Shown here: piece by piece, positions 7,032-59,635 of the stretch
Layout of the letters: each line of letters begins with the position of its first letter
Numbering within the stretch: the stretch's first letter is position 1
DNA from: Deltaproteobacteria bacterium
Lineage (GTDB): Bacteria > Lernaellota > Lernaellaia > JACKCT01
NCBI GenBank assembly: GCA_020633895.1
Contig: JACKCT010000005.1
Coordinates: 155,789-219,788, forward strand
Direction: 5' to 3'
DNA length: 64,000 bases
Notes under the pieces: model-generated
Databases searched by the model: none
Seen by the model: only the letters and a program-made list of their open reading frames with translations
Told to the model about the DNA's origin: nothing
Position numbers and translations under genes: made by a program

Positions 7032-9407
7032 ATGCTTTCGCCGCGACATATCTCGCTCCTTGCCGTCCTTCTCTTTTTGTTCGCTCCGCTTGCGTGCGGG
7101 GGAGAGAGCGACGAATCGGACCCGGTCTCGTCGGAATCTGAAGCGATCGATGGCGATGACGATGGCGATGGCGACGACAGTTCCGCGAGCGACGTGGATG
7201 ACGATGATTCCGCTGACGACGATACGACTGATACGGCCGTCGACGACGATACCGACGACGATACCGACGACGGCGAAGTCAGACCAACTTCCTGCCCCCA
7301 AGGCGAACGCATCGCCGAAGGCGAGCCCGGCGCCGGCGGGTGCCTCTCACAGATTACCTCGGGTTCGTACCTGAATTGGGAAGAGGAAGAGACGGTGATG
7401 GATTCGATTCTCACCGACGACGGTCAATTTCAAATTATCGTCGGCTCGGGGCGTCGAATCGAGGTCTATGCCACTGACACGATCGGGGCCAAGGACTCGG
7501 GCGAACCCGAATTCCGGCGGGAGATCGTCGCGCAAACGGGTAAACGTCCCGCGATCACCGTGGACGGCGACGGAGTTCGCCACGCGGCCTGGTATGACGC
7601 CCGCCACCGCCGTTTGTTGTATGCCAACGACGCGTCCGGCGAATGGATTCCGGAAATCGTCGACGACAACACCTACACGTCCGGGTCGCGGCCGTCGATT
7701 GCCGTCGATGGGCAAGAGACCGTTCATCTGGTCTATCGCAGCGGCCGTTATGCCACCAACGCCTCCGGGAAATGGGAGCATCGAGATCCGTTCGGGACGG
7801 CGAGCTACGGTGACAGCTCCATCGCGGTCGGCGCCGACCAAAAGGTCTACGCATGGTTCGGAAACTCCGGTGCGCTGGCGCAATTGGAGGACGGGGAGTG
7901 GACGCTTCTCGAACCCATCGAGGAAACCTACCAATCGGACAACGGCCGGATCCGCGTCGCTCCCGACGGGAAAATCCACCTGGCTCGATGGGAAAAGATT
8001 GTCGAGGTGTTGGAGTACAATACGTATTCGCCGGGAGTCGGATGGGCCGACGACGACCTGCGCTATCGGACATCCTCCCTGCCGGCGCTGACTTTGGACG
8101 CGCAAGGCAACGCCCACACCGTCGCCTATGTCGTCCGATCGGTCCGCTGCGACGATTGCGAAAACGACAAGGACGGCATCTGTATTCCCGAGTATTGCGA
8201 ACAGAAGTATGCCTTTCGTCACACGGCTTGGAACGGGGCCGAGCGTTTCGACGACGATCTGATCGATCTCCATGAGGTTGTGGAGGAAATCACGGCCCGG
8301 ATGGCGCCCGATGGCCGACTGCATGCCGCGTGGCTGACCTATGACGAATTCGAGTATGCGCTCCTGGAGGAGGGAGTTTGGCGGAGATTCGTCATCGCCG
8401 CCGACGACTCCAAATCGGCTCCCGGATTGGCGTTCGAAAAGGATCAGATTCCGCACGTGGTTTACGCGACGCAGACGGGAGTGTTCGATCTTTTTCGGAC
8501 GGGCGACGATTGGCGACAGCGAGAGATCATCGAAGTTCCGGTGGAGACTTATCCGAAATCGCGAAGAATTATTTTTCGCCCCCGCAATGCGCTCGCCGAC
8601 GCCTCGGGAACCGTTCACGCCTTTTTCTATGAATCCGCCAGGGACGAAAATCTAGTCTGGACATACACTCTTTACCACGCGTTCCTCGTCGGCGACCGAT
8701 GGGAAAGGCAAGAGATCACACCGACGGACTTGCCCGACCCGTCGGCCGGCAAAAACGGACTCGATTTTACCGTGGGCCTGACTGCCGCCGGCGAGGTCTA
8801 CCTGATTTATCTCGGCAACCAAGGCATTCGCGCCGCCGTGCAAAAAGACGGTCAATGGAGCGACTACCAAATCCGAGACGAGATCGCCGCTCCGGTGGAC
8901 AGCGATTATCACCCCGAGGTGGGAACGACGATCCTTCTGCGCGATCGCAATTCGGGCCGTATCTCTTTGGCGACCGATTCGTCCGGCGCGTGGGAGGTCG
9001 AGACGGTTCCCTTCGGCGTGTCCATGGAGGACGCGGTGGTTTCGATCGCGCCCGACCGGCGGATCTTCGTCGCCGCTCGTCGAGAGAACGGCGGCGTGTT
9101 CCTGGCCGTCAAGGACAACGGGTCGTGGACCGATTTTTCTTGGGAGAAGAGGGCGACAGCGGGGAACATCGCCATGGCGATCGACGCATCCGGCGCCCCG
9201 CAGATTTATTGCGCCACCGGCGATCAGTTGCTCAACCTGACCTTGCGTGACGGACAATTACAGTCTGCGCAAGTGGATTCCTTCGAGGGATATTGGACCT
9301 TCGTGGGTGTCGCGGCGATTCGTCCCGACGGAACGCACTGGGCTGTGCATACCTACCACAACGCGATCCAGCTTTTTGAAGGTCCGCCGCCGATTCCGAG
9401 TGAGTGA
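7032..9407 (+). CDS. Large lipoprotein with Asp-rich tether and repeated beta-propeller-like units
   Basis: Signal peptide plus lipobox 'LFAPLAC'. About 70 aa D/S/T-rich linker (DGDDDGDGDDSSASDVDDDDSADDDTTDTAVDDDTDDDTDD). Then repeated units of the type 'S(I/L)AVD..G..H.(A/V)(W/Y) ... L.YA....G.W'. Confidence 0.8.
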   Translation: MLSPRHISLLAVLLFLFAPLACGGESDESDPVSSESEAIDGDDDGDGDDSSASDVDDDDSADDDTTDTAVDDDTDDDTDDGEVRPTSCPQGERIAEGEPGAGGCLSQITSGSYLNWEEEETVMDSILTDDGQFQIIVGSGRRIEVYATDTIGAKDSGEPEFRREIVAQTGKRPAITVDGDGVRHAAWYDARHRRLLYANDASGEWIPEIVDDNTYTSGSRPSIAVDGQETVHLVYRSGRYATNASGKWEHRDPFGTASYGDSSIAVGADQKVYAWFGNSGALAQLEDGEWTLLEPIEETYQSDNGRIRVAPDGKIHLARWEKIVEVLEYNTYSPGVGWADDDLRYRTSSLPALTLDAQGNAHTVAYVVRSVRCDDCENDKDGICIPEYCEQKYAFRHTAWNGAERFDDDLIDLHEVVEEITARMAPDGRLHAAWLTYDEFEYALLEEGVWRRFVIAADDSKSAPGLAFEKDQIPHVVYATQTGVFDLFRTGDDWRQREIIEVPVETYPKSRRIIFRPRNALADASGTVHAFFYESARDENLVWTYTLYHAFLVGDRWERQEITPTDLPDPSAGKNGLDFTVGLTAAGEVYLIYLGNQGIRAAVQKDGQWSDYQIRDEIAAPVDSDYHPEVGTTILLRDRNSGRISLATDSSGAWEVETVPFGVSMEDAVVSIAPDRRIFVAARRENGGVFLAVKDNGSWTDFSWEKRATAGNIAMAIDASGAPQIYCATGDQLLNLTLRDGQLQSAQVDSFEGYWTFVGVAAIRPDGTHWAVHTYHNAIQLFEGPPPIPSE

Positions 9408-17851: not shown

Positions 17852-19051
17852 ATGACAATGCAAAACTCCCGACGATTTTGGATATTGGGTGTCGCCGCGC
17901 TGGCGGTGGCGTGGTCGAGTCTGGCGTGCGTTTCGGTGACGACGTCTTCCGGGGCACGGCCGCAAGCCGAGGCGCCGACGACCCCCACCGGGCGGGCGGC
18001 GTCCCGGGCTTCGGGTCTGGGGCCCAACGCGCCGAACATATTCTGGACCGAGGGCGGGGGCACGGCCGGCGACGTGAAGCTCTCGGGCGACACGTACATC
18101 CACCTGGCCGATCAGGCGAGCCCGGCCGTCGTCTCTATCTTCACCACGCAGGAATACGAGGCGCGCATCGGGGATCCCCTGGGCATCCTGCGCGTGCCGT
18201 TGGACGCGAACCTGGAGGCCACCAGCCTGGGCACCGGCTTTTTCATCAGCCGCGACGGCTTTCTGCTCACCAACGCCCATGTGGTCGCCAAGGCCGACCG
18301 CATCCACATCTTCATGCACGACCGATCCGAGGCCAAGGAGGTGCGGGTCGTCGGGGTCGACTCGTTGACCGACCTGGCGCTGCTCAAGGTCGAAACGCAG
18401 GAGCCCACGCCGTTTTTGTCCCTGGCCGACTCGGATGACGTGCGCATCGGCGAGATGGTGGTCGCCATCGGCAACCCCTTCGGTCTGGATTATTCGGTCA
18501 CGACCGGCGTGATTTCGGCGAAAAACCGCGTGCTCAACGCCGGGCGGCGGCGGGGTCTTTACGAGGACTTCCTGCAAACCAGCGCTCAGATCAATCCGGG
18601 CAACTCGGGCGGACCGCTGATCAATCTGCGCGGCGAGGTCGTCGGTGTGAACACGGCCATCATCGCCCAAGCCCAGGGCATCGGCTTCGCGGTGCCTTCG
18701 AATCTGGTCAAGGGGCTGCTGCCGGGTCTGGCGCGATACGGCAAGATTTCGCGCGGCTATTCGGGCATCGGCCTGGCCGAGTTGAATCCGGCCATCGCGC
18801 GACGGCTGGGGGTGAATCGCAGCAAGGGCGCGGTGGTGGTGTCCTTGGATCCGGACGGGCCGGGCGCGCGGGCGGGGGTGAAGGTCGGCGACGTGATCAC
18901 CGCCATCGACGGCGAGTCGATCGAAAGCTCCATCGAGGCCTCGCGGCGCATCACGGTCATGGAACCCGGCCATCACGCGACGCTTTCGATTCAGCGCGGC
19001 GGGGGCGAGACCGTGACGGTGAAATACACGACATCGAGCAAGACGGAATGA
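17852..19051 (+). CDS. htrA: HtrA/DegP-family serine protease (S1C) with one PDZ domain; probable lipoprotein
   Basis: Catalytic triad motifs 'LTNAHVV', 'DLALLKV' and 'NPGNSGGPLINLRGEVVGVNTAI'. PDZ segment 'GIGLAELNPAIARRLGV...GDVITAIDGESI'. N-terminal 'AVAWSSLAC' is a lipobox. Confidence 0.92.
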   Translation: MTMQNSRRFWILGVAALAVAWSSLACVSVTTSSGARPQAEAPTTPTGRAASRASGLGPNAPNIFWTEGGGTAGDVKLSGDTYIHLADQASPAVVSIFTTQEYEARIGDPLGILRVPLDANLEATSLGTGFFISRDGFLLTNAHVVAKADRIHIFMHDRSEAKEVRVVGVDSLTDLALLKVETQEPTPFLSLADSDDVRIGEMVVAIGNPFGLDYSVTTGVISAKNRVLNAGRRRGLYEDFLQTSAQINPGNSGGPLINLRGEVVGVNTAIIAQAQGIGFAVPSNLVKGLLPGLARYGKISRGYSGIGLAELNPAIARRLGVNRSKGAVVVSLDPDGPGARAGVKVGDVITAIDGESIESSIEASRRITVMEPGHHATLSIQRGGGETVTVKYTTSSKTE

Positions 19052-19488
19052 CGATGAGAATTCCAACACCCGACCGCGTTCGTTGGCTCCTTTTCGGTCT
19101 CACGCTCTTGGCAGTATTCGCCTTCGGTGCGTTCGCGTGCTCCGGCGATGACGACGATGACGATGACGCCGGAGCGGATGACGACGTCGCGGACGATGAC
19201 ACGTCTGACGACGACACCTCCGGCGACGACGATGCCGCGGGCGATGTGTGCGAGACCAACGAAGACTGCCCGATCACCTATTTCTGCAAAAAAGCCGTCG
19301 GCCTTTGCGGCGACGGACAAGGCGCCTGCAAGCTTTCGCCCCGCGCCGGATGCGACGAGGGCGACGAGGGCTGCGGCTGCGACGATGTCTACGAACCGGT
19401 ATGCGGTTGCGACGGCGAGACCTACGGCAACGAGTGCGACTCGGAACTGGCCGAGGTCAATATCGCCTCCGAAGGGGAGTGCCCCTGA
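19048..19488 (+). CDS. Lipoprotein: Asp-rich tether, Cys-rich module and Kazal-type domain
   Basis: 'AFGAFAC' lipobox, then 'SGDDDDDDDAGADDDVADDDTSDDDTSGDDD'. Kazal signature 'YEPVCGCDGETYGNECDSELAEVNIASEGEC'. Its ATG overlaps the htrA stop (ATGA at 19048..19051). Confidence 0.8.
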   Translation: MTMRIPTPDRVRWLLFGLTLLAVFAFGAFACSGDDDDDDDAGADDDVADDDTSDDDTSGDDDAAGDVCETNEDCPITYFCKKAVGLCGDGQGACKLSPRAGCDEGDEGCGCDDVYEPVCGCDGETYGNECDSELAEVNIASEGECP

Positions 19489-19518: not shown

Positions 19519-19938
19519 ATGAAACTGATTTCGCGAGAATTCGGATGGATCCCGGCGGTCCTGATTCTGTTGTTCACGGCAATGACCGTGAGCGCTGTTT
19601 CCTGCGGTGACGACGACGATGACGACGAGACCGGCGCGGATGACGACATCGTGGATGATGACACGTCCGATGACGACAGCGGGGACGACGACGACACCGA
19701 AGGAGGATGTGCCTCCAACGACGACTGCGACGTCTTCGAGTACTGCGCGAAGGACGTCACGCTGTGCGACGAAGGCACGGGCGTCTGCATGGAGACGCCG
19801 GCCGCGTGCGACACTGACTACACGCCCGTTTGCGGCTGCGACGGCATCACGTATTCCAACGAATGCGTCGCGGCGTCGAATCGGGTGAATGTGTCCTACC
19901 GTGGGGAGTGCGGTTCCACAATAACTTCGGATAGTTAG
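19519..19938 (+). CDS. Lipoprotein: Asp-rich tether, Cys-rich module and Kazal-type domain (paralog)
   Basis: 'VSAVSC' lipobox, then 'GDDDDDDETGADDDIVDDDTSDDDSGDDDD'. Kazal signature 'YTPVCGCDGITYSNECVAASNRVNVSYRGEC'. Confidence 0.8.
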   Translation: MKLISREFGWIPAVLILLFTAMTVSAVSCGDDDDDDETGADDDIVDDDTSDDDSGDDDDTEGGCASNDDCDVFEYCAKDVTLCDEGTGVCMETPAACDTDYTPVCGCDGITYSNECVAASNRVNVSYRGECGSTITSDS

Positions 19939-20033: not shown

Positions 20034-20588
20034 TTCCTTACCGATTCTCCCCGGTTTTTTCGACGTTCAAAAATTTTTCGGACCGGTGTGACGAGTGAAC
20101 ACGGTTTCGGGCCCTCCCGGTGCTATTCCTCTTCTTGTGAAAGGCGGACGGCGCGATCGCAAATCGCAAAAACCGGCCGCCGGCCCAAGGACGGGCGCAC
20201 AAATCAACCGCACAGCATTGCATCCTGATCGAGGGAAACCCCTGCGTAGCGGGGAGGGATGACGCTTCACCATGGGTCCGAGGATTTTGCGGACCGCCGG
20301 TCGACAGGAAGTCGCCGGACACCGAAGGACGGACGGAACCGGACATGATCCATCGAGGAATTAGTTGGGGTGACTGATCTCGTTAAAGCCGTGGGGACGG
20401 CTTGGATTCGGCGCCTTGCCACCGGCTCGGAAGTTGACGGCCGGGTCGGTGGCGAGGCCCGAGCGACTCTCGAGGCCCGCTGACAATCCGACGCTGGAGC
20501 CGGCCATGGAGGGCCGGGCTCGCGTCTTTCGCCAAGGCTCCTAGGCGCCCTACGCAATAGGGCGTAGTCCACACATTCCCCCACCGTG

Positions 20589-20628
20589 AGAAGCGGCGCC
20601 TCCCACACCGGGGCGTCGCTTCTTTTTT
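20589..20628 (+). terminator. Rho-independent terminator with no recognisable upstream gene
   Basis: agaagcggcgcc / ggcgtcgcttct form a 12-bp stem with one G-U pair, followed by TTTTTT (20623..20628). The T-tract is on the plus strand only. Confidence 0.45.
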
Positions 20629-20681
20629 GCGGGCTCAGCTTGTCGTGTTCAACTTTCCGGGTTCAGCGTGACGCGGGCAAT

Positions 20682-21818
20682 TTATCGGCAGTCGTAGAGA
20701 TATTCGGTGCAGACGTCGACGGTGTCGTCGCAGCCGTAGTCCGTGTTGTAGATGGACCAGCGGCCCTGCTCGTCCAGCACGACGGTGTCGCAAGTGTCGG
20801 CTTTGCCGTCGCACGTGTCGTCGACGGTGTGGGCGACGAGCGCGCCGGTTTCGTTGAAGGTCCACCCGTTGCAGGCGGCGTCGTCGGTGCCGTCACAGTC
20901 GGTGTCCAAGGCGGTGACGGTCGTCTGCCCGCCGGCGTTATATTCCCAGCGCATGCATTGCGAGTCGCCGGTTTCGTCGCAGTCCGCGTCCTCGCCGCGA
21001 AATTCCGTTTGGCCGTTTTCGTTGAAGTATTCGATCGTGCAGCCTTCCAGCACGTCGTCGCAGCCGTCGTCGACCCGGATATGGCGCGATGAGTCGGGCT
21101 CGTCGGGAAAGGCGTAGTCGGTGCAAAATTCCGCTTCGCCGTCGCAGCCCGTGTCCTCGTTCCGATCGGTCAGGCGGCCGCTTTCGTCATAGGTCTGCGT
21201 GATGCACAGGTCCGGTTCGCCGTCGCAGGTTTCGTCGCGCGCCGTCCGCTCCAGGCGCCCTTCGTCGTCGTAGAAATATTCGGCGCAGTTCTCGTCCGCC
21301 TCGCCGTTGCAATCGCTGTCGAAGAACGTCGCCTCCAATCGGCCGGCCTCGTCGACGACAAAGGTGTCGCACTGGTCGGCCGCGCCGTCGCAGTCGGCGT
21401 CCGCGCCGGAAGTGACCAGATAGCCGCGCGAGTCATAGGTGTTGGCCCGGCAGTCCATGCCCTCGCGATCGCAGCCTTCGTCGTCCCACGTCGTGAGGTT
21501 TTGGCCGTTGGCGTTGTAGGTGGAATAGGTGCAGTGGTCCGGCGTGCCGTCGCAGTCTTCGTCGCGCTCGACGGTGGTCGGCAGGCACACCGGCTCCTCG
21601 TCGTCATCGCCCCCGGCGGTGTCGTCGTCGTCCGAATCGTCGTCGGAGGCGTCGTCATCGTCGTCCACGGTGGGCACCGCGTCGTCATCGTCGTCGTCGT
21701 CCGTGGCGGCTACCGAGCCGCGCGGCGTGGACGCATCCTCGTCGCCCCCGCATCCCGCCAGGGAGAACAGGAGCAACAGCAAGGCCGTCAGGGCGGCGGC
21801 GATCCAACGAAAACTCAC
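20682..21818 (-). CDS. Cys-clamped YD-like repeat lipoprotein, paralog A
   Basis: ORF 20682..21893. GTG 21818 gives (M)SFRWIAAALTALLLLLFSLAGC, a lipobox. The Asp-rich linker is followed by 11 repeats of the D.DCDG..D.C....YD..GR type. C-terminus is 'TEYLYDCR'. Confidence 0.85.
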   Translation of the reverse strand: MSFRWIAAALTALLLLLFSLAGCGGDEDASTPRGSVAATDDDDDDDAVPTVDDDDDASDDDSDDDDTAGGDDDEEPVCLPTTVERDEDCDGTPDHCTYSTYNANGQNLTTWDDEGCDREGMDCRANTYDSRGYLVTSGADADCDGAADQCDTFVVDEAGRLEATFFDSDCNGEADENCAEYFYDDEGRLERTARDETCDGEPDLCITQTYDESGRLTDRNEDTGCDGEAEFCTDYAFPDEPDSSRHIRVDDGCDDVLEGCTIEYFNENGQTEFRGEDADCDETGDSQCMRWEYNAGGQTTVTALDTDCDGTDDAACNGWTFNETGALVAHTVDDTCDGKADTCDTVVLDEQGRWSIYNTDYGCDDTVDVCTEYLYDCR

Positions 21819-21859
21819 CGATACCCGATCCTTCCCGCCCGGCGACGCCTTACACGTGC

Positions 21860-22990
21860 CTAGGCATCGCACTGGAACCCGTACGACTCGCATTCGTCGG
21901 CGACGCCGTCGCAGGTTTCGTCATAGTTCCACTCGACCGTATATCCGTATTCGTTTCCGACACCGCTGTAACACGATTCGGGCGTCCCGTCGCAAAATCT
22001 GTCGTACCTCTGGCCGATCAACGCGCCGTTTTCGTCGTAATCGTACGCGAAACAATATTCGTTCAGGCTGCCGTCGCAACCCGTATCCTGGCCCTCCGTC
22101 AAAACACGGCCTTGAGCGTCATACGTGGTGCGCGCACAGGTGAGGTCCGGGACTTTGTCGCAATTGTCGTCAACGCCATAGAGAGTTTGCCGACCGTCGT
22201 TGTCGAACTCGAGGACGTAGCAGGACAAATCCTCGCCGTCGCATCCGATGTCGTTACTCGTCGTTTCCCGATAGCCGCCGCCCTCCAGGTCAGTGTAGAC
22301 GTTGACGATGCACTGGTCCGGCGTTTCGTCACAGCCGGTGTCGACCGTGTTGGTCAACTCGCGGTCCTTGGCGTCGTAGGTCGACGTTCCGCAGGTTTCC
22401 GGCTTGCCGTTGCAATCGCCGTCGAATCTGATGCCGATGCGACGGCCTTTGCCGTCGTTTTCAAAGAGAACGCACTTGGAGTCGGCGAAGCCGTTGCAGT
22501 CGGTGTCGGAGAACTGCTCGATCAAGCGTCCGTCCTCAAACACCGAGCGCAAGCAGTCTTTGTCGGCGACACCGTCGCAGTCGGTGTCATCCCCATATAG
22601 GGTCTCGTTGCCGTTGCCGTCGTACTTTTGCAGGAAACAGCTTTCCGGCGATCCGTCGCAGTTCGCGTCATCCGCGCTGCGCGTCTGTTGGCCGTCGTCG
22701 TTGTATTCGTACGTGCGGCAGGTGTCCGGAAGGCCATCGCAGCCGTTGTCCACGGTCTTCGTCGTCCGGAGGCATTCCACCGCGTCGTCATCGTCGCCGG
22801 TGTCGTCGTCGCCCGAGTCGTCATCGACGGCGGAATCGTCGTCATCGGTCGCGTCATCGTCGACCGCGTCGTCATCCGCCGCGTCGTCGTCATCTCCGCC
22901 CCCGCCGCCGCCCCCGCCGCAGGATAGCGCCACGCCGGCCAGGGTCAGAGCCACCGCCAAAATCCACCACTGAGTGCGTTGCAGAGCCAT
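21860..22990 (-). CDS. Cys-clamped YD-like repeat lipoprotein, paralog B
   Basis: ATG 22990 gives MALQRTQWWILAVALTLAGVALSC. This is followed by a GGGGGGG-DDDD... linker and 11 repeats (for example 'DDTDCDGVADKDCLRSVFEDGRL'). It ends 'ESYGFQCDA'. Confidence 0.85.
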   Translation of the reverse strand: MALQRTQWWILAVALTLAGVALSCGGGGGGGGDDDDAADDDAVDDDATDDDDSAVDDDSGDDDTGDDDDAVECLRTTKTVDNGCDGLPDTCRTYEYNDDGQQTRSADDANCDGSPESCFLQKYDGNGNETLYGDDTDCDGVADKDCLRSVFEDGRLIEQFSDTDCNGFADSKCVLFENDGKGRRIGIRFDGDCNGKPETCGTSTYDAKDRELTNTVDTGCDETPDQCIVNVYTDLEGGGYRETTSNDIGCDGEDLSCYVLEFDNDGRQTLYGVDDNCDKVPDLTCARTTYDAQGRVLTEGQDTGCDGSLNEYCFAYDYDENGALIGQRYDRFCDGTPESCYSGVGNEYGYTVEWNYDETCDGVADECESYGFQCDA

Positions 22991-23075
22991 GGTCGAAACC
23001 CGCCTATGAAGCCGATGTCCCCGTATTTTATTTCCCGGGTGACGGCTTTGGGGAGGCGGTCCATCGGCCAGACGT

Positions 23076-23110
23076 AAAAAAAGACGGCGCCCCGTCAAAG
23101 GAGCGCCGTC
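23076..23110 (-). terminator. Rho-independent terminator after paralog C
   Basis: On the minus strand: gacggcgc-tcctttgacggg-gcgccgtc followed by ttttttt. Confidence 0.6.
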
Positions 23111-23159
23111 GTGTTCGATCGTGAAATGTCGTCGCTTTGGCCGAGGGCGGGTCGGCGCC

Positions 23160-24254
23160 TTAGAAGCAGGCCATGTCCCAGTCGGTGCAGCTCTCCGGGT
23201 CGCCGTCGCAGCCTTCGTCCTGCGTGACGACGTCCAGTCGCCCGTTTTCATCAACGGTCGCCGAAGTGCAGGAATCCGGCGTGCCGTCGCACTCATCGTC
23301 CCGCTGGCTGGAAATCGTCACGCCGAATTCGTTGACGACCCATTCGTAGCAATCCCGATCCGCTTCGCCGTCGCAGTCTTGATCCAGAAAGGAGCTTTCC
23401 AGGCCGTGCTCGCCGTACGTCCAGTGATAGCATCCCTCGTCGGCCTCGCCGTCGCAGTCCGCGTCGAAGCCTTGGAACAGGGTTCGCATCTCGTCGTCCA
23501 AAAGACTCACGTCACAATCCTCGAACGGCTCGCCTTCGCAGCCCAGGTCGGGTTTGTAGAGTTGATGCGTGTTGCCGTCCTCGTCGAGCGTGTAGGTCGT
23601 GTAATGGCATTCATCCGGTGTCTCGTCGCAGTCGTAGTCCACGTAGCGCTCGATTTGGCGCCCCCGGCTATCGTACACGGTGGCGTAGCACGTGTCGGGT
23701 GAGTCGTCGCATTCGGTGTCGAGGGCTCGGGTCGCCTCCAGGCCGGCGGCGTTGTACGTGATATTGGAACAGGCTTCGTCGGCCTCGCCGTCGCAATCCG
23801 GGTCCGAGCCGCTGAACACGACCAGGTCGCCCTCATATTTGTAAATGTAGCAGGATTGATCCGGCGTCCCGTCGCATTCGTTGTCCCGACCTTCGCCGAC
23901 GCGGCGGCCCTCGTCGTCATATTGAACCACGTAGCAGGATTCCGGCGATCCGTCGCACAGTTCGTCCGTCTCCCGATACAGCAGGTTGCCGTCCTCGTCG
24001 AAATGCGAGCGATCGCAGTAGCTCGGATCGTCGCCGCATTCGGGATAGATCGTGATCGATTCCGGCTGGCAGACCTGGTCGTCGTCGGCGGTGTCGTCAT
24101 CCGTCGTGTCGTCGTCATCGTCCGTATCGTCGTCGGTCACATCGTCATCGGACGAGTCGTCGTCGTCTCCGCCATTGTCGCAGGCTGTGGGAAGAACGAT
24201 CAGCGCCGAGGCGATGAGCAAAACGATCGTCAGCCAAAGGCCATATCGCGCCAT
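23160..24254 (-). CDS. Cys-clamped YD-like repeat lipoprotein, paralog C
   Basis: ATG 24254 gives MARYGLWLTIVLLIASALIVLPTAC. The Asp-rich linker is followed by about 11 repeats (for example 'DNECDGTPDQSCYIYKYEGD', 'DYDCDETPDECHYTTY'). It ends 'TDWDMACF'. Confidence 0.85.
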   Translation of the reverse strand: MARYGLWLTIVLLIASALIVLPTACDNGGDDDDSSDDDVTDDDTDDDDDTTDDDTADDDQVCQPESITIYPECGDDPSYCDRSHFDEDGNLLYRETDELCDGSPESCYVVQYDDEGRRVGEGRDNECDGTPDQSCYIYKYEGDLVVFSGSDPDCDGEADEACSNITYNAAGLEATRALDTECDDSPDTCYATVYDSRGRQIERYVDYDCDETPDECHYTTYTLDEDGNTHQLYKPDLGCEGEPFEDCDVSLLDDEMRTLFQGFDADCDGEADEGCYHWTYGEHGLESSFLDQDCDGEADRDCYEWVVNEFGVTISSQRDDECDGTPDSCTSATVDENGRLDVVTQDEGCDGDPESCTDWDMACF

Positions 24255-24288
24255 GAGGACACCCTCCCAAAAATCCAGTTGACGATTT

Positions 24289-25341
24289 CTAATAGCACTC
24301 GGTTTCGTATTCCAGACACACGTCGGTCGATCCGTCGCAGCCGCTGTCGACGAAATACGTTTCCCACAGCCCGTTCTCGTCAATCTCTCCGCCGGCTTCG
24401 CAGTATTCAGGCTCGCCGTCGCAGTTTTGGTCCGTCGTTACCGTCGCGACTAATCCAAAGTCGTTGTAGGTAATGGTCCGGCAATCCGTGAACGAACCGT
24501 CGCAGCCGTCGTCGGATTTGGAGAAGGTCGGCTGTCCGTCGGCCGAATACTTTTCTTCGTAGCAATACTCGCCGTTTTCGTCGCAGCCTTCGTCGAACTT
24601 GGACGCCAAGTCGTAGCTGCCGTCCGGGTGATCGGTGTAGGTGATTTTGCCGCAGTCGAACGGCCCGGCCAGATCGCATCCTTCGTCGACGAGGACCGCC
24701 GTCTGGCGTCCTTTTTCGTCATAGGTGTATTTCGTGCATACGTCGGGCACGTCATCGCACGCCTCGTCCGTTTCCTCGTTCGTCAGGCGGCCGTCCTCGT
24801 CGTAGATCCGCGCCCGGCAGTTGGTCTTCACCGAGTCGGTGCAGTCGTCGTCGAAATAGGTTTTGTAGGTTCGGGTCGACTCGAAGTATTGGCCGCGAAA
24901 GCACGAGTCGCCCTTGGGACCGTCGCAGCCTTCGTCGGAGCGGTCGAGGAGAATCCGGCCTTCGTCGTCGTTTTCGGAGGTGCTGCAATAATCCCGCTTG
25001 CCGTCGCAATCCGTGTCGATGTCGAAGGCGGTTTCGTTGCCGTTCTCGTCGTAGGTGAAGAAAATGCAGTTATCGCCGTCGCCGGGCCCGTCGCACATCA
25101 GATCGAAGGTCCGTTCGGTAACTCGGCAGACCTCATCCTCGTCCGTGTCGTCATCCGCGTCGTCGTCTGTCGTGTCGTCGTCAACGGAGTCGTCATCGCC
25201 GGTGTCGTTGTCATCATCGGCGACGTCGTCATCCGCGGAGTCGTCATCGTCACCACCGCCGCCGCCGCAGGCCAACGGCACGGCGACAAACAAGACGACG
25301 ACGAAAAACATCAGGCAGGCCATTTGCGGAGTACGATTCAT
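24289..25341 (-). CDS. Cys-clamped YD-like repeat lipoprotein, paralog D
   Basis: MNRTPQMACLMFFVVVLFVAVPLAC lipobox, then 'GGGGGDDDDSADDDVADDDNDTGDDDSVDDDTTDDDADDDTDEDE'. Repeats follow (for example 'DTDCDGKRDYCSTSENDDEGRI'). It ends 'LEYETECY'. Confidence 0.85.
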   Translation of the reverse strand: MNRTPQMACLMFFVVVLFVAVPLACGGGGGDDDDSADDDVADDDNDTGDDDSVDDDTTDDDADDDTDEDEVCRVTERTFDLMCDGPGDGDNCIFFTYDENGNETAFDIDTDCDGKRDYCSTSENDDEGRILLDRSDEGCDGPKGDSCFRGQYFESTRTYKTYFDDDCTDSVKTNCRARIYDEDGRLTNEETDEACDDVPDVCTKYTYDEKGRQTAVLVDEGCDLAGPFDCGKITYTDHPDGSYDLASKFDEGCDENGEYCYEEKYSADGQPTFSKSDDGCDGSFTDCRTITYNDFGLVATVTTDQNCDGEPEYCEAGGEIDENGLWETYFVDSGCDGSTDVCLEYETECY

Positions 25342-25378
25342 CGGAGCGCCTTTCGCCGAAGTTCAGCAACCGTGGTCA

Positions 25379-26443
25379 TCAGACGCACGCATAATCGAAA
25401 TCGATACAGGAATTGATCGTTCCGTTGCAATCCTCGTCGATAATGTACAGGTCGACATTGCCTTCGTCATCGGACGAACCCACCCGTTCGCAATATTCAT
25501 CTTCGCCGTCGCATTCTTCGTCATGCTTGAAATCGATGACCTGTCCGGCGGCGTTGTATTCCCAGGTTTCGCACTCGGCAAACGTTCCGTCGCAGTCGTC
25601 GTCGCGTCTAGCCGCGATGCGTCGATTGTCCGCGTTGTAGGTCGTCTCGTTGCAGAATTCCTTGACGTCGTCGCATCCATTGTCCTGCGTTAGAAGAATG
25701 ACGAGCCCGTCGTCCGTTTCGGTGCGTTGGTATGTCAGGCAAACGTCCGCGCCGCCGTCGCAGCCGTTGTCCGTCTCGCGTGAAGCGAGATTGCCGTCGG
25801 CATCGTACCCATAGGCCAGGCACAATTCGCCTTTGCCGTCGCATTCCTTGTCCAGTTCGAAGGACGTGCTGTTGCCGTCGGCATTGTATTTGACCGTGGT
25901 GCAGTCGACCGGATCGGTGTTGTCGCAGTCTTCGTCGGTCAAAGCGGACAGTGTCTTGCCGTCTTCACTATAAGTATTCCGAATGCACACATCTCCCGAC
26001 GGGCCGTCGCAGTCGACGTCCGTGCGGATCAGGGCGATGCGTCCTTGTTCGTCGTACGTGGTCGTTCGACAGGCCTCCGATTTATCGTCGCACTCAAGGT
26101 CGTCTTCCATATAGGTGGCCTGATGATCGGCGTTGTATTGCCACGATTGGCAAAGATCTCCATCGCCGGGGCCGTTGCACATATTGTCGTAGTTCTTTTT
26201 CCGCATTTCGCAGACGACTTTCTCCTCCGTATCGTCGTCGCTGTCGTCGTCGTCCGAATCGTCATCCTCCGAGTCGTCATCCGTGGACGAATCGTCATCG
26301 GTTTCATCGTCGTCGTCGTCGGAGTCGTCGTCGGTGTCGGCCGCGTCATCGTCGTCGCTTCCGCAGCCACAGGCCGTCGGCGCAAACAAAGACATGAAAA
26401 CGAGCACGAAGAAAACAATGAGTTTCAGTTGGCGGCTTGGCAT
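25379..26443 (-). CDS. Cys-clamped YD-like repeat lipoprotein, paralog E
   Basis: MPSRQLKLIVFFVLVFMSLFAPTAC lipobox and an Asp-rich linker. Repeats follow (for example 'DVDCDGPSGDVCIRNTYSEDGKT', 'DDDCDGTFAECETWEYNAAGQV'). It ends 'IDFDYACV'. Confidence 0.85.
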   Translation of the reverse strand: MPSRQLKLIVFFVLVFMSLFAPTACGCGSDDDDAADTDDDSDDDDDETDDDSSTDDDSEDDDSDDDDSDDDTEEKVVCEMRKKNYDNMCNGPGDGDLCQSWQYNADHQATYMEDDLECDDKSEACRTTTYDEQGRIALIRTDVDCDGPSGDVCIRNTYSEDGKTLSALTDEDCDNTDPVDCTTVKYNADGNSTSFELDKECDGKGELCLAYGYDADGNLASRETDNGCDGGADVCLTYQRTETDDGLVILLTQDNGCDDVKEFCNETTYNADNRRIAARRDDDCDGTFAECETWEYNAAGQVIDFKHDEECDGEDEYCERVGSSDDEGNVDLYIIDEDCNGTINSCIDFDYACV

Positions 26444-26881
26444 GGCGTGGTCCTCCGTTCAGGGGTCGGACGCGCCGTCAAAAACCAGCGGATTTTCATG
26501 GATGGCAACGCTTTGTGGAGCCGCTGCCAAAACGAACGGCCGTGACGTCGATTCAGTCGCCGCCACGCAAGAAATACGCATTCCGTCGTGTGAAACCGCA
26601 GCATACCCCTTCCCGAGGCGTCCTAGGTAGAAAAAAAGCCGTCCGAGCGGGTTTTCCCCGGACATCCCCGGCGGTCCGGGAGGCAAACTCTGAAGTTATG
26701 ATGCAGCGCATCTTGAAATTTTATCCCCACCTCGATAGAAGGTAATGCCGCGCTGTGTCGTGCCGCATTCCCATGAGCTGAGAGTACCGACGCCGGGACG
26801 GAAAACCCCGGGATCTTGACCGGCGCGCCGAGTCGATTTTCGTTTTGCCCAAGGTCGCAAAGACAAGGAGATCCTGAAACC

Positions 26882-32516: not shown

Positions 32517-34334
32517 ATGAAACTGGCCCTAATTTACCCGCCGTTTTACCATAAGAAGTTTAACGAAAATCTTCCGACCACGGACGATGAGTTCGGATTG
32601 TTTCCCCACATCGGTTTCGGCTGGGTTTCGGCCATGGCCAAGCAGACCGGGTGGGACGTGCGTCTGTTCGAGGCGGCGTGCCGCAAGTCGGACTACAACG
32701 AGGTCCTGCGGGACGTCATCGCCTACGGCCCGGACCTGATCGGGTTCGCCGGCCATGCCACGCAGACCTTCCGCGACATGCTGCTCTGGGCTCGGCGCTT
32801 TAAGCGGGACATGGGCCTGCCCCAGGTCGTCGGCGGCTACGAATGCAAGGCCTATCCCTACGAAATCATGGAGCACGAGTGCTTCGATTATTTGTGCGTG
32901 GGCGAGGCGATCACCTTCATGCCGCCCTTCCTGCGCGCCTTCGAGGCGGGCTCGGGATACGACAAGGTGCCCGATCTGCTCTATCGCGACAACGGGCAAC
33001 TCAAGCGCACGCACGACGCGCACCACATCCCTTACTCGGAGCATCCGTTCCCGGATCGGTCCATTTTCCCCAACGAAGAATTCTATTCGATGGTCAGCCA
33101 GCGAAAGAACTTCACCATCGGCATGAGCGAAGTGGGCTGCCCGTACCCGTGCACGTTCTGCTCCATGCGGCACACCGGCTTCGAGGGCCGCACCCCCGGC
33201 CAACTCGCCGACGAGATGGAAGACTGCATCAACAATCACGGCATCCACGAGATCGACTACTTCGATCCGATCATGCTCTACGACCGCCACCGGGCCATCG
33301 AGTTCGCCCAGGAAATCCAGCGGCGCAACCTGGACATCATCTGGTCGTGCCGGGCTCGGGTAGACAGCCTGTCGTTCCGCAAGCACAACGGCGACGTGGA
33401 CCGGGAGCTCATCCAAGCCCTGGCCGACTCGGGCTGCCGGCGCATCTTCTTCGGCATTGAATCCGGTGACGAGCAGGTGCTCAAGAACATCAAGAAGGGC
33501 AAAGTCACCAGCAACGTCGAGCGCGTGCTGCTCACGTTGGAAGAATACGAGATCCGTTCGCTGGGCTTTTTCATGATCGGCAATCCGGGCGAGACCGAGG
33601 AGACGGTGCAAAAGACCATCTCCCTGGCCACCAGCCTGCCGCTGCATTACACGCAGTTCACGTTGACGATGATCAAGCCCCACACGGACCTGGAAAAGGA
33701 ATACATCTTCCAGGCGACGGGTATCGACTACTGGCGGGAATACATTCGCGGCAACGTGGAGGAGCAGATCCTGCCCACGCCCTGGACCGAGCTGACGCGC
33801 GCCGACCTGGAGCGACTGGCCCGGAAGGCGTACCTGTCGTTCTACCTGCGCCCCGGGTACATGCTCAAGATGATTCTGCGCATCGAGTCCTGGCAGGAGT
33901 TCCAGCGCTATGCCCGTGTGGCGTTCCAGATGATGCTGCGGCCGCTGCGTCCGGAGAAGATCGGGCCTCAGCCGGTCTGGCGCAAGGTGCCGCGATTCGG
34001 CCTGGCGTTCCTGGACGGCCTTCTGGCCAACCTCAACCAGGGCGGACGTCATCCGGTCAGCTACTTCGGCGGCGGGGTCAAAGGCGCGTGGCGTCTGGCC
34101 ATGTACGAATGGCATCGCACCAGCACCACCGAGGACGTGGCCGCGCCGGGCAGCGTGGACGGAGAGCTGATGCATCCGGACGCTCACACGCGCATCCGCA
34201 AGATCGAGGAGTTCACCGGCGACAACCGCTACATCCCGTTGTCGGAAGGCGCGTTGGGCTATTCCCGCAAGCGGGGCCGCGACTCGGTCAACCCCTACAC
34301 CGAAGACTCCCCGGCGACCGTGACGGTCAACTAG
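32517..34334 (+). CDS. B12-binding-domain radical SAM enzyme (class B)
   Basis: N-terminal Rossmann-like B12-binding-type region ('MKLALIYPP...DLIGFAGH'). Radical SAM cluster motif 'GCPYPCTFCSM' (CxxxCxxC). 'RIFFGIESGDEQVL'. About 150 aa C-terminal extension. Confidence 0.85.
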   Translation: MKLALIYPPFYHKKFNENLPTTDDEFGLFPHIGFGWVSAMAKQTGWDVRLFEAACRKSDYNEVLRDVIAYGPDLIGFAGHATQTFRDMLLWARRFKRDMGLPQVVGGYECKAYPYEIMEHECFDYLCVGEAITFMPPFLRAFEAGSGYDKVPDLLYRDNGQLKRTHDAHHIPYSEHPFPDRSIFPNEEFYSMVSQRKNFTIGMSEVGCPYPCTFCSMRHTGFEGRTPGQLADEMEDCINNHGIHEIDYFDPIMLYDRHRAIEFAQEIQRRNLDIIWSCRARVDSLSFRKHNGDVDRELIQALADSGCRRIFFGIESGDEQVLKNIKKGKVTSNVERVLLTLEEYEIRSLGFFMIGNPGETEETVQKTISLATSLPLHYTQFTLTMIKPHTDLEKEYIFQATGIDYWREYIRGNVEEQILPTPWTELTRADLERLARKAYLSFYLRPGYMLKMILRIESWQEFQRYARVAFQMMLRPLRPEKIGPQPVWRKVPRFGLAFLDGLLANLNQGGRHPVSYFGGGVKGAWRLAMYEWHRTSTTEDVAAPGSVDGELMHPDAHTRIRKIEEFTGDNRYIPLSEGALGYSRKRGRDSVNPYTEDSPATVTVN

Positions 34335-59128: not shown

Positions 59129-59635
59129 TCAGGAATCCGGGCCCGGGGCGCAGGCGATCAGTTCGTCACAGTCGCCGTTATAGGCCGCGAAGCAATCGGC
59201 CGCTTGCTGTTCGAGCTTGCCGTCCAGGCAGTCTTCCAGGCAGAGTTCGGCGAGCATCGTGACCGTCGGCGGGTTGTTCTCGCCCCAGTCCAGGCAATCC
59301 TGCAAGCCGTCCATATTCGCGTCGACGCAGTAGTCGTCGCACTGTTCCGCCGGCACGGGATTGACCGCTCCTTCTTCGTCGTCATCGTCCCCGATGTCGT
59401 CGTCGGCCGCGTCGTCGTCATCGTCGCCGGGGGCGGGATTTTCGTCGAAATAATCGCCCGGATCCCGGTCCGCGTCGGAGTCGTCGTCGTCGTCCGCGTC
59501 GGACACGCCCTCATCGGACGAATCGTCGTCGTCGTCCCCCGCCGAGGCGCAGGCTGCCGCCAAAGCGGCCAGAAACGCGCTCGCCGCCAGGGCGGCGAGA
59601 ACGAGTCGTTTGGGATGAGGCCGGCGCGCGTTCAC
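59129..59635 (-). CDS. Small lipoprotein: Asp-rich tether plus 8-Cys (twin Cx3C) domain
   Basis: ORF 59129..59827. GTG 59635 gives (M)NARRPHPKRLVLAALAASAFLAALAAAC, a lipobox. Next comes 'ASAGDDDDDSSDE...DDDDDAADDDIGDDDDEE', then 'CDDYC...C...CLEDC...C...C..LIAC'. Confidence 0.7.
   Translation of the reverse strand: MNARRPHPKRLVLAALAASAFLAALAAACASAGDDDDDSSDEGVSDADDDDDSDADRDPGDYFDENPAPGDDDDDAADDDIGDDDDEEGAVNPVPAEQCDDYCVDANMDGLQDCLDWGENNPPTVTMLAELCLEDCLDGKLEQQAADCFAAYNGDCDELIACAPGPDS

Follow-up and report, generated by a model that had tools for sequence, protein, structure and literature searches.

A tandem array of predicted lipoproteins built from a cysteine-clamped, divergent form of the YD/RHS repeat

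The paralog array and its architecture

We analyzed a 64,000-nucleotide stretch of contig JACKCT010000005.1 (assembly GCA_020633895.1, positions 155,789 to 219,788 of the forward strand; hereafter, the window) from a Deltaproteobacteria bacterium assigned by GTDB to the Lernaellota. The ORF list of the window places five consecutive minus-strand open reading frames (ORFs) between positions 20682 and 26443, encoding paralogous repeat proteins that are designated here, in the order of transcription, E (25379-26443, 354 aa), D (24289-25341, 350 aa), C (23160-24254, 364 aa), B (21860-22990, 376 aa, ATG start) and A (20682-21818, 378 aa, GTG start). The lengths given for E to B are those of the deposited annotation of the same genome. 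The ORF of A reaches an upstream ATG at 21893, yielding the 403-aa version used in the original prediction; the gene at this position in a second assembly is annotated as 378 aa, and the longer model is thus probably too long, the 378-aa GTG model being preferred. A purine-rich stretch resembling a Shine-Dalgarno sequence precedes all five starts (GGAGG in the case of E). The intergenic gaps measure 37, 34, 169 and 41 nt from E to A, and the 169-nt spacer between C and B harbors a strong intrinsic-terminator-like hairpin (23083..23110, read as 23110..23083 on the minus strand) identified by consensus scan, with an 11-bp stem containing 9 GC pairs and a T7 tail. This hairpin fits the earlier proposal of two transcription units, E-D-C (with C as its last gene) and B-A, both of which are putative. 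A back-translated DNA pattern of two consecutive repeats matched the window 8 times, compared to 0.00 matches expected from shuffled sequences, and the ORFs and their Cys spacing bear out the proposal that the five genes follow a common blueprint.

Each of the encoded proteins comprises a hydrophobic h-region ending in Cys, an acidic spacer, a lone Cys (hereafter the N-cap Cys), 10-11 repeats and a final Cys (the C-cap Cys), with the chain stopping 1-2 residues past the latter. The lipoboxes of A to E read LAGC (in 'SLAGC'), ALSC (in 'VALSC'), PTAC, PLAC and PTAC (in 'APTAC'), respectively; evaluated against the pattern [LVI][ASTVI][GAS]C, that of A is canonical and that of B acceptable, and those of C, D and E are atypical, with Pro at position -3. 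Homologs from other metagenome-assembled genomes (MAGs) retain the Cys that follows the h-region, and the sequences suggest that the paralogs are probably secreted and lipid-anchored. The poly-Asp tether that had been predicted is present in all five proteins, with a length of 36-54 aa (54 in A, 48 in B, 52 in E) instead of the 40-70 aa originally given, an Asp and Glu content of 50-63% and a charge of -22 to -32. In paralog D, the signal peptide and lipobox Cys are encoded at 25267-25341, the tether at 25129-25266 and the repeat domain at 24292-25128. The mature repeat domains span 277-304 aa (roughly 280-305) and carry a net charge of -47 to -71.

Cys-Cys distances in the five paralogs alternate strictly between 7-9 and 19-23 residues, corroborating the prediction of one C-x6/7-C pair per repeat and adding a C-x19-22-C spacing between pairs. 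Paralogs A, B and C contain 11 Cys loops, in agreement with the estimate of about 11 repeats, and D and E contain 10. Among the repeats of all seven paralogs identified in this genome (see below), 57 of 68 are 27 or 28 aa long, within a range of 26-31 aa. Excluding the lipobox Cys, the mature domains of A to E contain 24, 24, 24, 22 and 22 Cys residues, an always even total, as had been proposed. The chains end in the C-cap segments 'LYDCR' (A), 'GFQCDA' (B), 'DMACF' (C) and 'DYACV' (E). Paralog E presents a second Cys two residues past its lipobox Cys ('C-G-C', residues 25-27, 26363-26371), and 'C-G-C' or 'C-D-C' also follows the lipobox in homologs from loci L018, L052 and L054 of other genomes. 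This additional residue makes the Cys count of the mature protein odd, with an intermolecular disulfide or a second modification as possibilities.

The genome holds at least seven paralogs of this family. Two further members flank an alpha-amylase gene on contig JACKCU010000002.1 (P0002, at L001:10001-11158, and L001:13154-14266); this contig belongs to MAG GCA_020633875.1, in which the window was matched to JACKCU010000004.1 and which is taken here as the same genome. The seven paralogs are about equidistant from each other, with 31-41% identity, and synonymous divergence (dS) among the five window paralogs ranges from 1.07 to 1.95, which is saturated. A search of the array for near-identical DNA blocks, for invertible elements and for traces of gene conversion detected none, and its DNA repeats are only 60-80% identical at the motif level, leading us to reject recent duplication or gene conversion. 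Judged by their sequences, the paralogs are ancient, stably maintained duplicates, as originally proposed. The dN/dS comparison suggested at that time contributes the dS values, which support this age; the ratio itself is uninterpretable at saturation. Many long ORFs in other frames, including those of the opposite strand, overlap the genes across 20586-26630 (among them 21529-22143, 24628-25416 and 25055-25693). Their translations are rich in Ser, Val, Thr and Arg, and they are by-products of GAC/GAT-rich, high-GC coding sequence, not genes.

Repeat identity, predicted fold and wider family

Almost all known YD/Rhs repeats form either large hollow toxin-encapsulating shells (Rhs, Tc) or teneurin scaffolds. 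Against the Pfam RHS_repeat model (PF05593, cut-off of 22 bits), paralog D scores 22.3 bits, E 20.0 and A 11.9, and B and C yield no match; against TIGR01643 (YD_repeat_2x, cut-off of 15.8), E scores 17.6 bits. D and E hence pass curated RHS/YD cut-offs barely and with one model each, a borderline result at the sequence level. Scores of relatives identified below are considerably higher (P0009, 118 bits; P0008, 52.7; P0029, 49.5; P0017, 39.2) and include members of both of the classes described there, so that the comparison with RHS_repeat put forward in the original prediction is borderline for D and clear for the relatives, and falls short for the other four paralogs. The other two models named for comparison, TSP_3 (PF02412) and TIGR02232, do not match any of the five paralogs at E<=1, and identity with thrombospondin (TSP) type 3 or TIGR02232 repeats was consequently rejected. 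Sequence searches of the PDB with the family profile, P0009 and P0008 returned nothing, and the link to solved Rhs structures is therefore made through the Pfam model and the predicted fold only.

The canonical YD/RHS repeat is about 20-21 residues long. As in the YD/RHS repeats of type VI secretion system (T6SS) Rhs proteins, TcB/TcC and teneurins, the repeats of the paralogs contain an 'x-Y-x-Y-D-x-x-G-R/N-L' hairpin core and are predicted to form an antiparallel sheet, but their period is 27-28 aa, with the extra 6-7 residues forming a Cys-clamped loop of the DxDxDG type. Residues 180-216 of D align to positions 1-31 of the RHS_repeat profile, and the aligned sequences place the length of the inter-hairpin loop some 6-7 residues above that implied by the Pfam model. 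Combining these profile comparisons with the structural predictions, we regard the repeat with high confidence as a diverged branch within the established YD/RHS type, and not as a wholly new family. The designation of the array as a candidate novel family was thus too strong, given the cut-offs passed by D and E, the relatives scoring up to 118 bits and the 3,206 representatives reported below. The 27-residue DxDxDG-YD repeat nonetheless has no curated model of its own, and a dedicated one would help because three of the five paralogs escape the current RHS_repeat model. Keyword searches of titles and abstracts found no literature describing the 27-residue repeat or its Cys-clamped form, nor any on the MAG accession, and the paper on Candidatus Lernaellota does not mention lipoproteins, YD or Rhs.

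Structural predictions were calculated with AlphaFold2 for D, using a 12-sequence alignment, and for A, using a 32-sequence alignment. The resulting models are very confident, with a predicted local distance difference test (pLDDT) of 93.2 and a predicted template modelling score (pTM) of 0.81 for D (20 strands), and a pLDDT of 96.4 and a pTM of 0.85 for A (22 strands). Both are composed of β-hairpins throughout, with strands of 5-10 and mostly 7-9 residues. The best matches in a Foldseek comparison with the PDB are Rhs T6SS effectors, teneurins, TcB/TcC and SGS1 (E-values of 1e-8 to 1e-11), and the first 41 matches of the A model are all YD shells. TM-scores computed over the whole query (TMq) are 0.24-0.49 for YD shells and about 0.18 (0.16-0.21) for the flat single-layer sheets of OspA. 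Borrelia OspA, which is among the Foldseek matches, is likewise a lipid-anchored, tethered, all-β hairpin meander, but it is flat and open, has globular end domains and lacks repeats, Cys and the YD motif. The models hence predict, with high confidence, an antiparallel YD hairpin sheet whose curvature resembles that of a segment of an Rhs shell, and the structural comparison that had been suggested for these proteins places Rhs, teneurin and Tc shells on top. In contrast to those shells, the paralogs are small predicted lipoproteins with Cys caps and only 10-11 hairpins, which we estimate to correspond to roughly one turn.

An exhaustive profile search over 1.84 billion representative proteins recovered 3,206 relatives at E<=1e-3, 1,489 at E<=1e-10 and 269 at E<=1e-30. 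Word-indexed searches returned only 7 and 10 relatives and missed the window's own paralogs; since such searches understate the family, its description as rare was rejected. The best 151 relatives fall into two sharply separate classes, with 57-63 Cys-type and 87 Cys-free proteins. In this set, Cys-type relatives are mostly 240-770 aa long and about half of them show a lipobox-like N-terminus, and the Cys-free relatives range from 300 to 6,479 aa. Cys-free proteins (among them P0009, P0016, P0011 and P0013) were found by the Cys-type profile with E-values down to 1e-81, share the same period and register, and in many cases carry a lipobox. Unlike the paralogs, they have neither the cysteines nor the caps, keep the Ca-ligand set almost fully and are in many instances giant and adhesin-like.

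A single-repeat hidden Markov model (HMM) proved too weak for the Cys-free repeats, and the register of the loop was established instead from logos anchored by regular expression (regex). The Cys-free repeats, with a dominant period of 27, read D1(100%)-x-[D66/N27]3-[G46/A30]4-[D93]5-G6-x-x-[D69/E16]9-x-[I45/V13]11 ... Y16-D17-x-x-G20-N/R21, and the Cys-type repeats read D1-x-[D49/G21/N10]3-C4-[D93]5-[G93]6-x-P-[D62/E24]9-x-C11(12) ... Y-D-x-x-G. The view of the repeat as an acidic DxDxDG-type loop joined to a YD core is hence upheld, with the Cys-free homologs presenting the canonical loop in the same register. The accompanying idea that Cys replaces the central Asp of this loop is not: in the motif D1-x-D3-C4-D5-G6, the cysteines occupy position x4, which is Gly or Ala in Cys-free repeats, and the hydrophobic position 11, which is Ile or Val.

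Conservation of the loop is high at D1 (84-93%), D5 (84-93%) and D9 (about 77-86%, counting D or D/E), and the two loop cysteines are conserved at 97-98% in the Cys-type class. Position 3, in contrast, is D or N in 93% of Cys-free repeats, 59% of Cys-type repeats and 20 of the 48 window repeats. In part of the paralog loops, positions 1, 3 and 5 hold D or N, position 6 holds Gly and position 9 is acidic, as in EF-hand-like and TSP type 3 Ca loops; the full ligand set (D/N at 1, 3 and 5, plus G6) is nevertheless retained in only 15 of 48 (2-4 per paralog), and a likely disulfide spans the loop. In the paralog models, C4 lies just past the end of a strand and C11 is the second residue of the next, as would be expected if a disulfide bridged the neck of the loop. 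C4 and C11 would accordingly form one disulfide per repeat at this neck, taking over the stapling role presumably held by Ca2+ in the Cys-free relatives. Because the position-3 ligand has decayed while both cysteines are almost invariant, we infer from the sequences and models that a covalent staple has largely replaced a Ca2+ staple. If the disulfide pattern is true, these proteins represent a clean evolutionary case of a Ca2+ staple exchanged for a covalent one.

These searches point to two large uncurated branches of YD proteins: a 27-residue DxDxDG form of the Ca type, comprising lipoproteins and giant adhesin-like proteins, and its Cys-clamped derivative, which uncultured Myxococcota-like and FEN-1099-like bacteria carry in small lipoproteins. 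The giant Cys-free proteins P0009, P0011, P0012, P0013, P0020, P0026 and P0033 measure 1,100-6,479 aa and contain dozens of repeats; their sequences, with a BapA_N prefix domain in P0013, suggest an adhesin-like nature. P0009 presents 36 YDxxG motifs versus 20 DxDxDG loops, and these counts, together with visual inspection, suggest that it mixes shorter YD repeats with the 27-residue form.

Cap cysteines, ring closure and possible functions

In all five paralogs, the distance from the N-cap Cys to the first loop Cys is exactly 11 residues, and that from the last loop Cys to the C-cap Cys exactly 7. In repeat numbering, the C-cap Cys corresponds to position 18, right after Y16-D17 (in A, 'C-T-E-Y-L-Y-D-C-R'), and the N-cap Cys to position 20, otherwise taken by the turn glycine; thus, both caps map inside the four-residue YD turn D17-x-x-G20. 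Cap statistics were compiled over 84 Cys-type proteins, comprising database representatives and complete ORFs from genome loci. Both caps are present in 20 of these proteins, neither in 49, and 15 are discordant (odds ratio 17.5, Fisher p=1e-7). Among the 20 capped proteins, the N-cap spacing is 11 in 17 and the C-cap spacing is 7 in 18.

Both models place the N-cap Cys at the beginning of the first strand and the C-cap Cys at the end of the last. DSSP assigns the terminal residues to extended strand ('E') while the facing residues of their own hairpins are not so assigned, suggesting pairing of the first strand with the last. The YD turn that is missing between these two strands would be replaced by a disulfide linking the caps, and the 20-22-stranded sheet would close on itself, forming roughly one turn of an Rhs-like shell. 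The pairing of the caps, offered originally as speculation, gains real support from their co-occurrence, their fixed spacings and their mapping to the YD turn, and the Cys register and models together argue with moderate confidence for ring closure by a terminal disulfide.

The explanation that best accommodates these data, and that we consider probable on balance, is that the array encodes lipid-anchored arrays of stapled YD hairpins with terminal closure that act as binding or display scaffolds in the cell envelope. Each domain would hang from the membrane on a polyanionic spacer common to many lipoproteins of the lineage and would constitute a rigid scaffold, resistant to proteases and chelators and carrying no toxin, plug or autoprotease. 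The frame would come from the invariant motif, and each paralog would owe a ligand surface of its own to strongly diverged residues in the strands and loops. Taken by itself, a binding-scaffold function is tentative and rather doubtful. More specifically, the domains may be circular, single-turn YD rings or short wide barrels of 20-22 strands, closed by the terminal disulfide and bearing on one rim the 10-11 stapled former Ca2+ loops, so that the seven diverged paralogs would act as tethered rings binding or threading polymers of the envelope or of the extracellular space; this we regard as a tenable possibility that we lean slightly against. If true, the circular YD ring would be an unnamed YD architecture combined with a natural swap of a disulfide for a Ca2+ staple, and an instance of a repeat array made circular by a terminal disulfide exactly at the missing β-turn. 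With the disulfides as proposed, the domain would also offer a compact (~30 kDa), very confidently modelled and hyper-stable scaffold of possible use in protein engineering.

Several observations weigh against this explanation. The reading as a whole draws on sequence and predicted models, and ring closure in particular derives from the Cys register and DSSP strings. The TM-scores to Rhs shells are modest, and the lipoboxes of C, D and E depart from the consensus at position -3. Ca2+ may still play a part, as all Ca ligands are retained in about one third of the loops. Several, not all, of the 15 cap-discordant proteins are artefacts of regex detection, the capped members carry 8-12 loops and thus define no fixed ring size, and an intermolecular head-to-tail bond would fit the same cap register. 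Finally, the carriers are all uncultured MAGs, and there is no conserved gene neighbourhood pointing to a function.

The tether can be considered separately from the repeat domain. Within the window, poly-Asp tethers are carried by nine lipobox proteins. Besides the array, tethered lipoproteins are encoded at 19048-19488 (+), 19519-19938 (+), 7032-9407 (+) and approximately 59129-59560 (-). The tether is also found on the unrelated proteins at L001:8458-9135 and L001:9301-9828, as well as in unclassified MAGs and a fen_1099 MAG (loci L018, L031, L052, L054 and L062). In this genome, it takes the form of a 35-70-residue poly-Asp spacer after the lipobox Cys, with a loose 'DDDxx' periodicity, on unrelated domains. 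The tether had been listed as part of the family blueprint; its sequence distribution indicates that it is instead a genome-wide lipoprotein feature, apparently a generic spacer, that is not specific to the YD family. It could be a lineage-specific signal for sorting or surface export, or an electrostatic spacer, and constitutes a separate lead on lipoprotein sorting and spacing in this lineage.

Among the alternatives to a stapled scaffold, the strongest, although still unlikely, is that the proteins are polyanionic cation sinks or brushes, acting mainly via their charge on Ca2+, Mg2+, metals, cationic peptides or mineral surfaces, and not through recognition of one particular macromolecular ligand. 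The charge of domains and tethers is in keeping with this role, as are the conservation of loop positions D1, D5 and D9, the EF-hand-like DxDxDGxxD loop kept by the Cys-free relatives and the number of poly-Asp lipoproteins in 64 kb. The tether is, however, also found on Kazal-type inhibitor-like proteins with a different expected function, which suggests a generic spacer, and the full Ca-ligand set is gone in about two thirds of the window loops, whereas the Cys pair is kept at about 98%. Furthermore, charge alone would not need seven paralogs of 31-41% identity with a strictly kept fold.

That the paralogs form a variable surface coat or decoy, providing differentially expressed alternative antigens or decoys of phage or predator receptors, appears quite unlikely. 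The tandem arrangement in two putative transcription units, the strong divergence outside the motif and the tandem trio found in another MAG (L020) would all suit this role. It presumes exposure at the surface, and the DNA of the array, free of near-identical blocks, invertible elements and signs of gene conversion and with saturated dS, speaks for ancient and stably kept copies, not for fast switching.

It is very improbable that the caps serve a head-to-tail assembly, in which the C-cap Cys of one subunit would bond the N-cap Cys of the next, which may be another paralog, so as to extend the YD sheet from subunit to subunit and generate a larger Rhs-like spiral or shell with several lipid anchors. 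Cap positions 18 and 20 are complementary in the YD turn and fit an intermolecular join too, and both the seven paralogs of this genome and the 8-12 loops of capped members can be read in its favor; the monomer models are nevertheless confident and compact (pTM of 0.81 and 0.85), their terminal strands appear to be paired within the monomer, and many carrier loci are single-copy. Lastly, a classical Rhs/YD polymorphic toxin or Tc-like encapsulation device was rejected and retains next to no chance, even though Rhs T6SS effectors and TcB/TcC are the best fold matches: none of the five paralogs has a DPxG or PxxxxDPxGL core motif, they lack the plug, autoprotease core motif and toxin of Rhs core proteins as well as any C-terminal extension or domain, they carry a predicted Sec/lipoprotein signal instead, their 20-22 strands (one turn's worth) and 277-304 aa represent about a quarter to a third of the matched Rhs chains, with their ~1000-residue shell, and no VgrG, PAAR, T6SS or immunity-like gene is found among the neighbours of the array.

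Distribution and neighbouring genes

GTDB species-representative genomes were scanned with a degenerate DNA pattern covering two Cys repeats in a row, and the matches were rescored by HMM. The pattern identified 57 loci, and rescoring dropped unrelated Cys-rich proteins and chance matches (Microbacterium, Clostridia, an archaeon), leaving 26 ORFs in about 20 genomes as true members. The survey of related MAGs advocated in the original prediction thus locates the repeat outside this genome. The carriers belong mostly to Myxococcota, Polyangiales or 'Deltaproteobacteria', with a fen_1099 member and several unclassified entries labeled 'bacterium'. Several carrier genomes are multi-copy, including the one with the tandem trio. 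All elements of the blueprint (lipobox, poly-Asp tether and caps) are found together again at L018, L052, L054 and L062 (fen_1099), and the protein at L031 presents a lipobox and poly-Asp tether, with no C-cap detected.

The DNA pattern also caught some proteins with repeats of the TIGR02232 and MopE-like CDG-rich type, which resemble the family in their Cys- and Asp-rich 'CDG' motifs and in being secreted Myxococcota proteins, but have no YD hairpin and did not pass the family HMM. At L008, L014, L015, L026, L029 and L039, Myxococcota proteins of 1,300-2,700 aa contain 80-140 Cys and 'CDGxDDDCDG' motifs; having failed the same HMM, they are assigned by sequence to a different class of Cys-rich repeat.

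The genes flanking the array encode an HtrA-like protease, two Kazal-like lipoproteins and a Zn-ADH/CBS reductase, and no synteny of the HtrA, Kazal or reductase genes was found in the other carrier loci. A gene for a B12-binding radical SAM protein is present in the window at 32517-34334 (+), 6 kb from the array, and genes of the same type occur near family members at L051:3430-5196 and L053:1223-2701, with 22-25% identity; given the huge size of this enzyme family, the recurrence is probably a coincidence. The HtrA-like protease, with trypsin and PDZ domains (17852-19051, +), is immediately followed by the small tethered Kazal lipoproteins at 19048-19488 (+) and 19519-19938 (+), of which the second matches the Pfam Kazal_1 model with an E-value of 1.5e-8 and the first is sub-threshold. 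The same protease-Kazal arrangement is found in assembly GCA_020440635.1, and, on the basis of these matches, the HtrA-like protease and its cognate tethered Kazal inhibitors may form a module.

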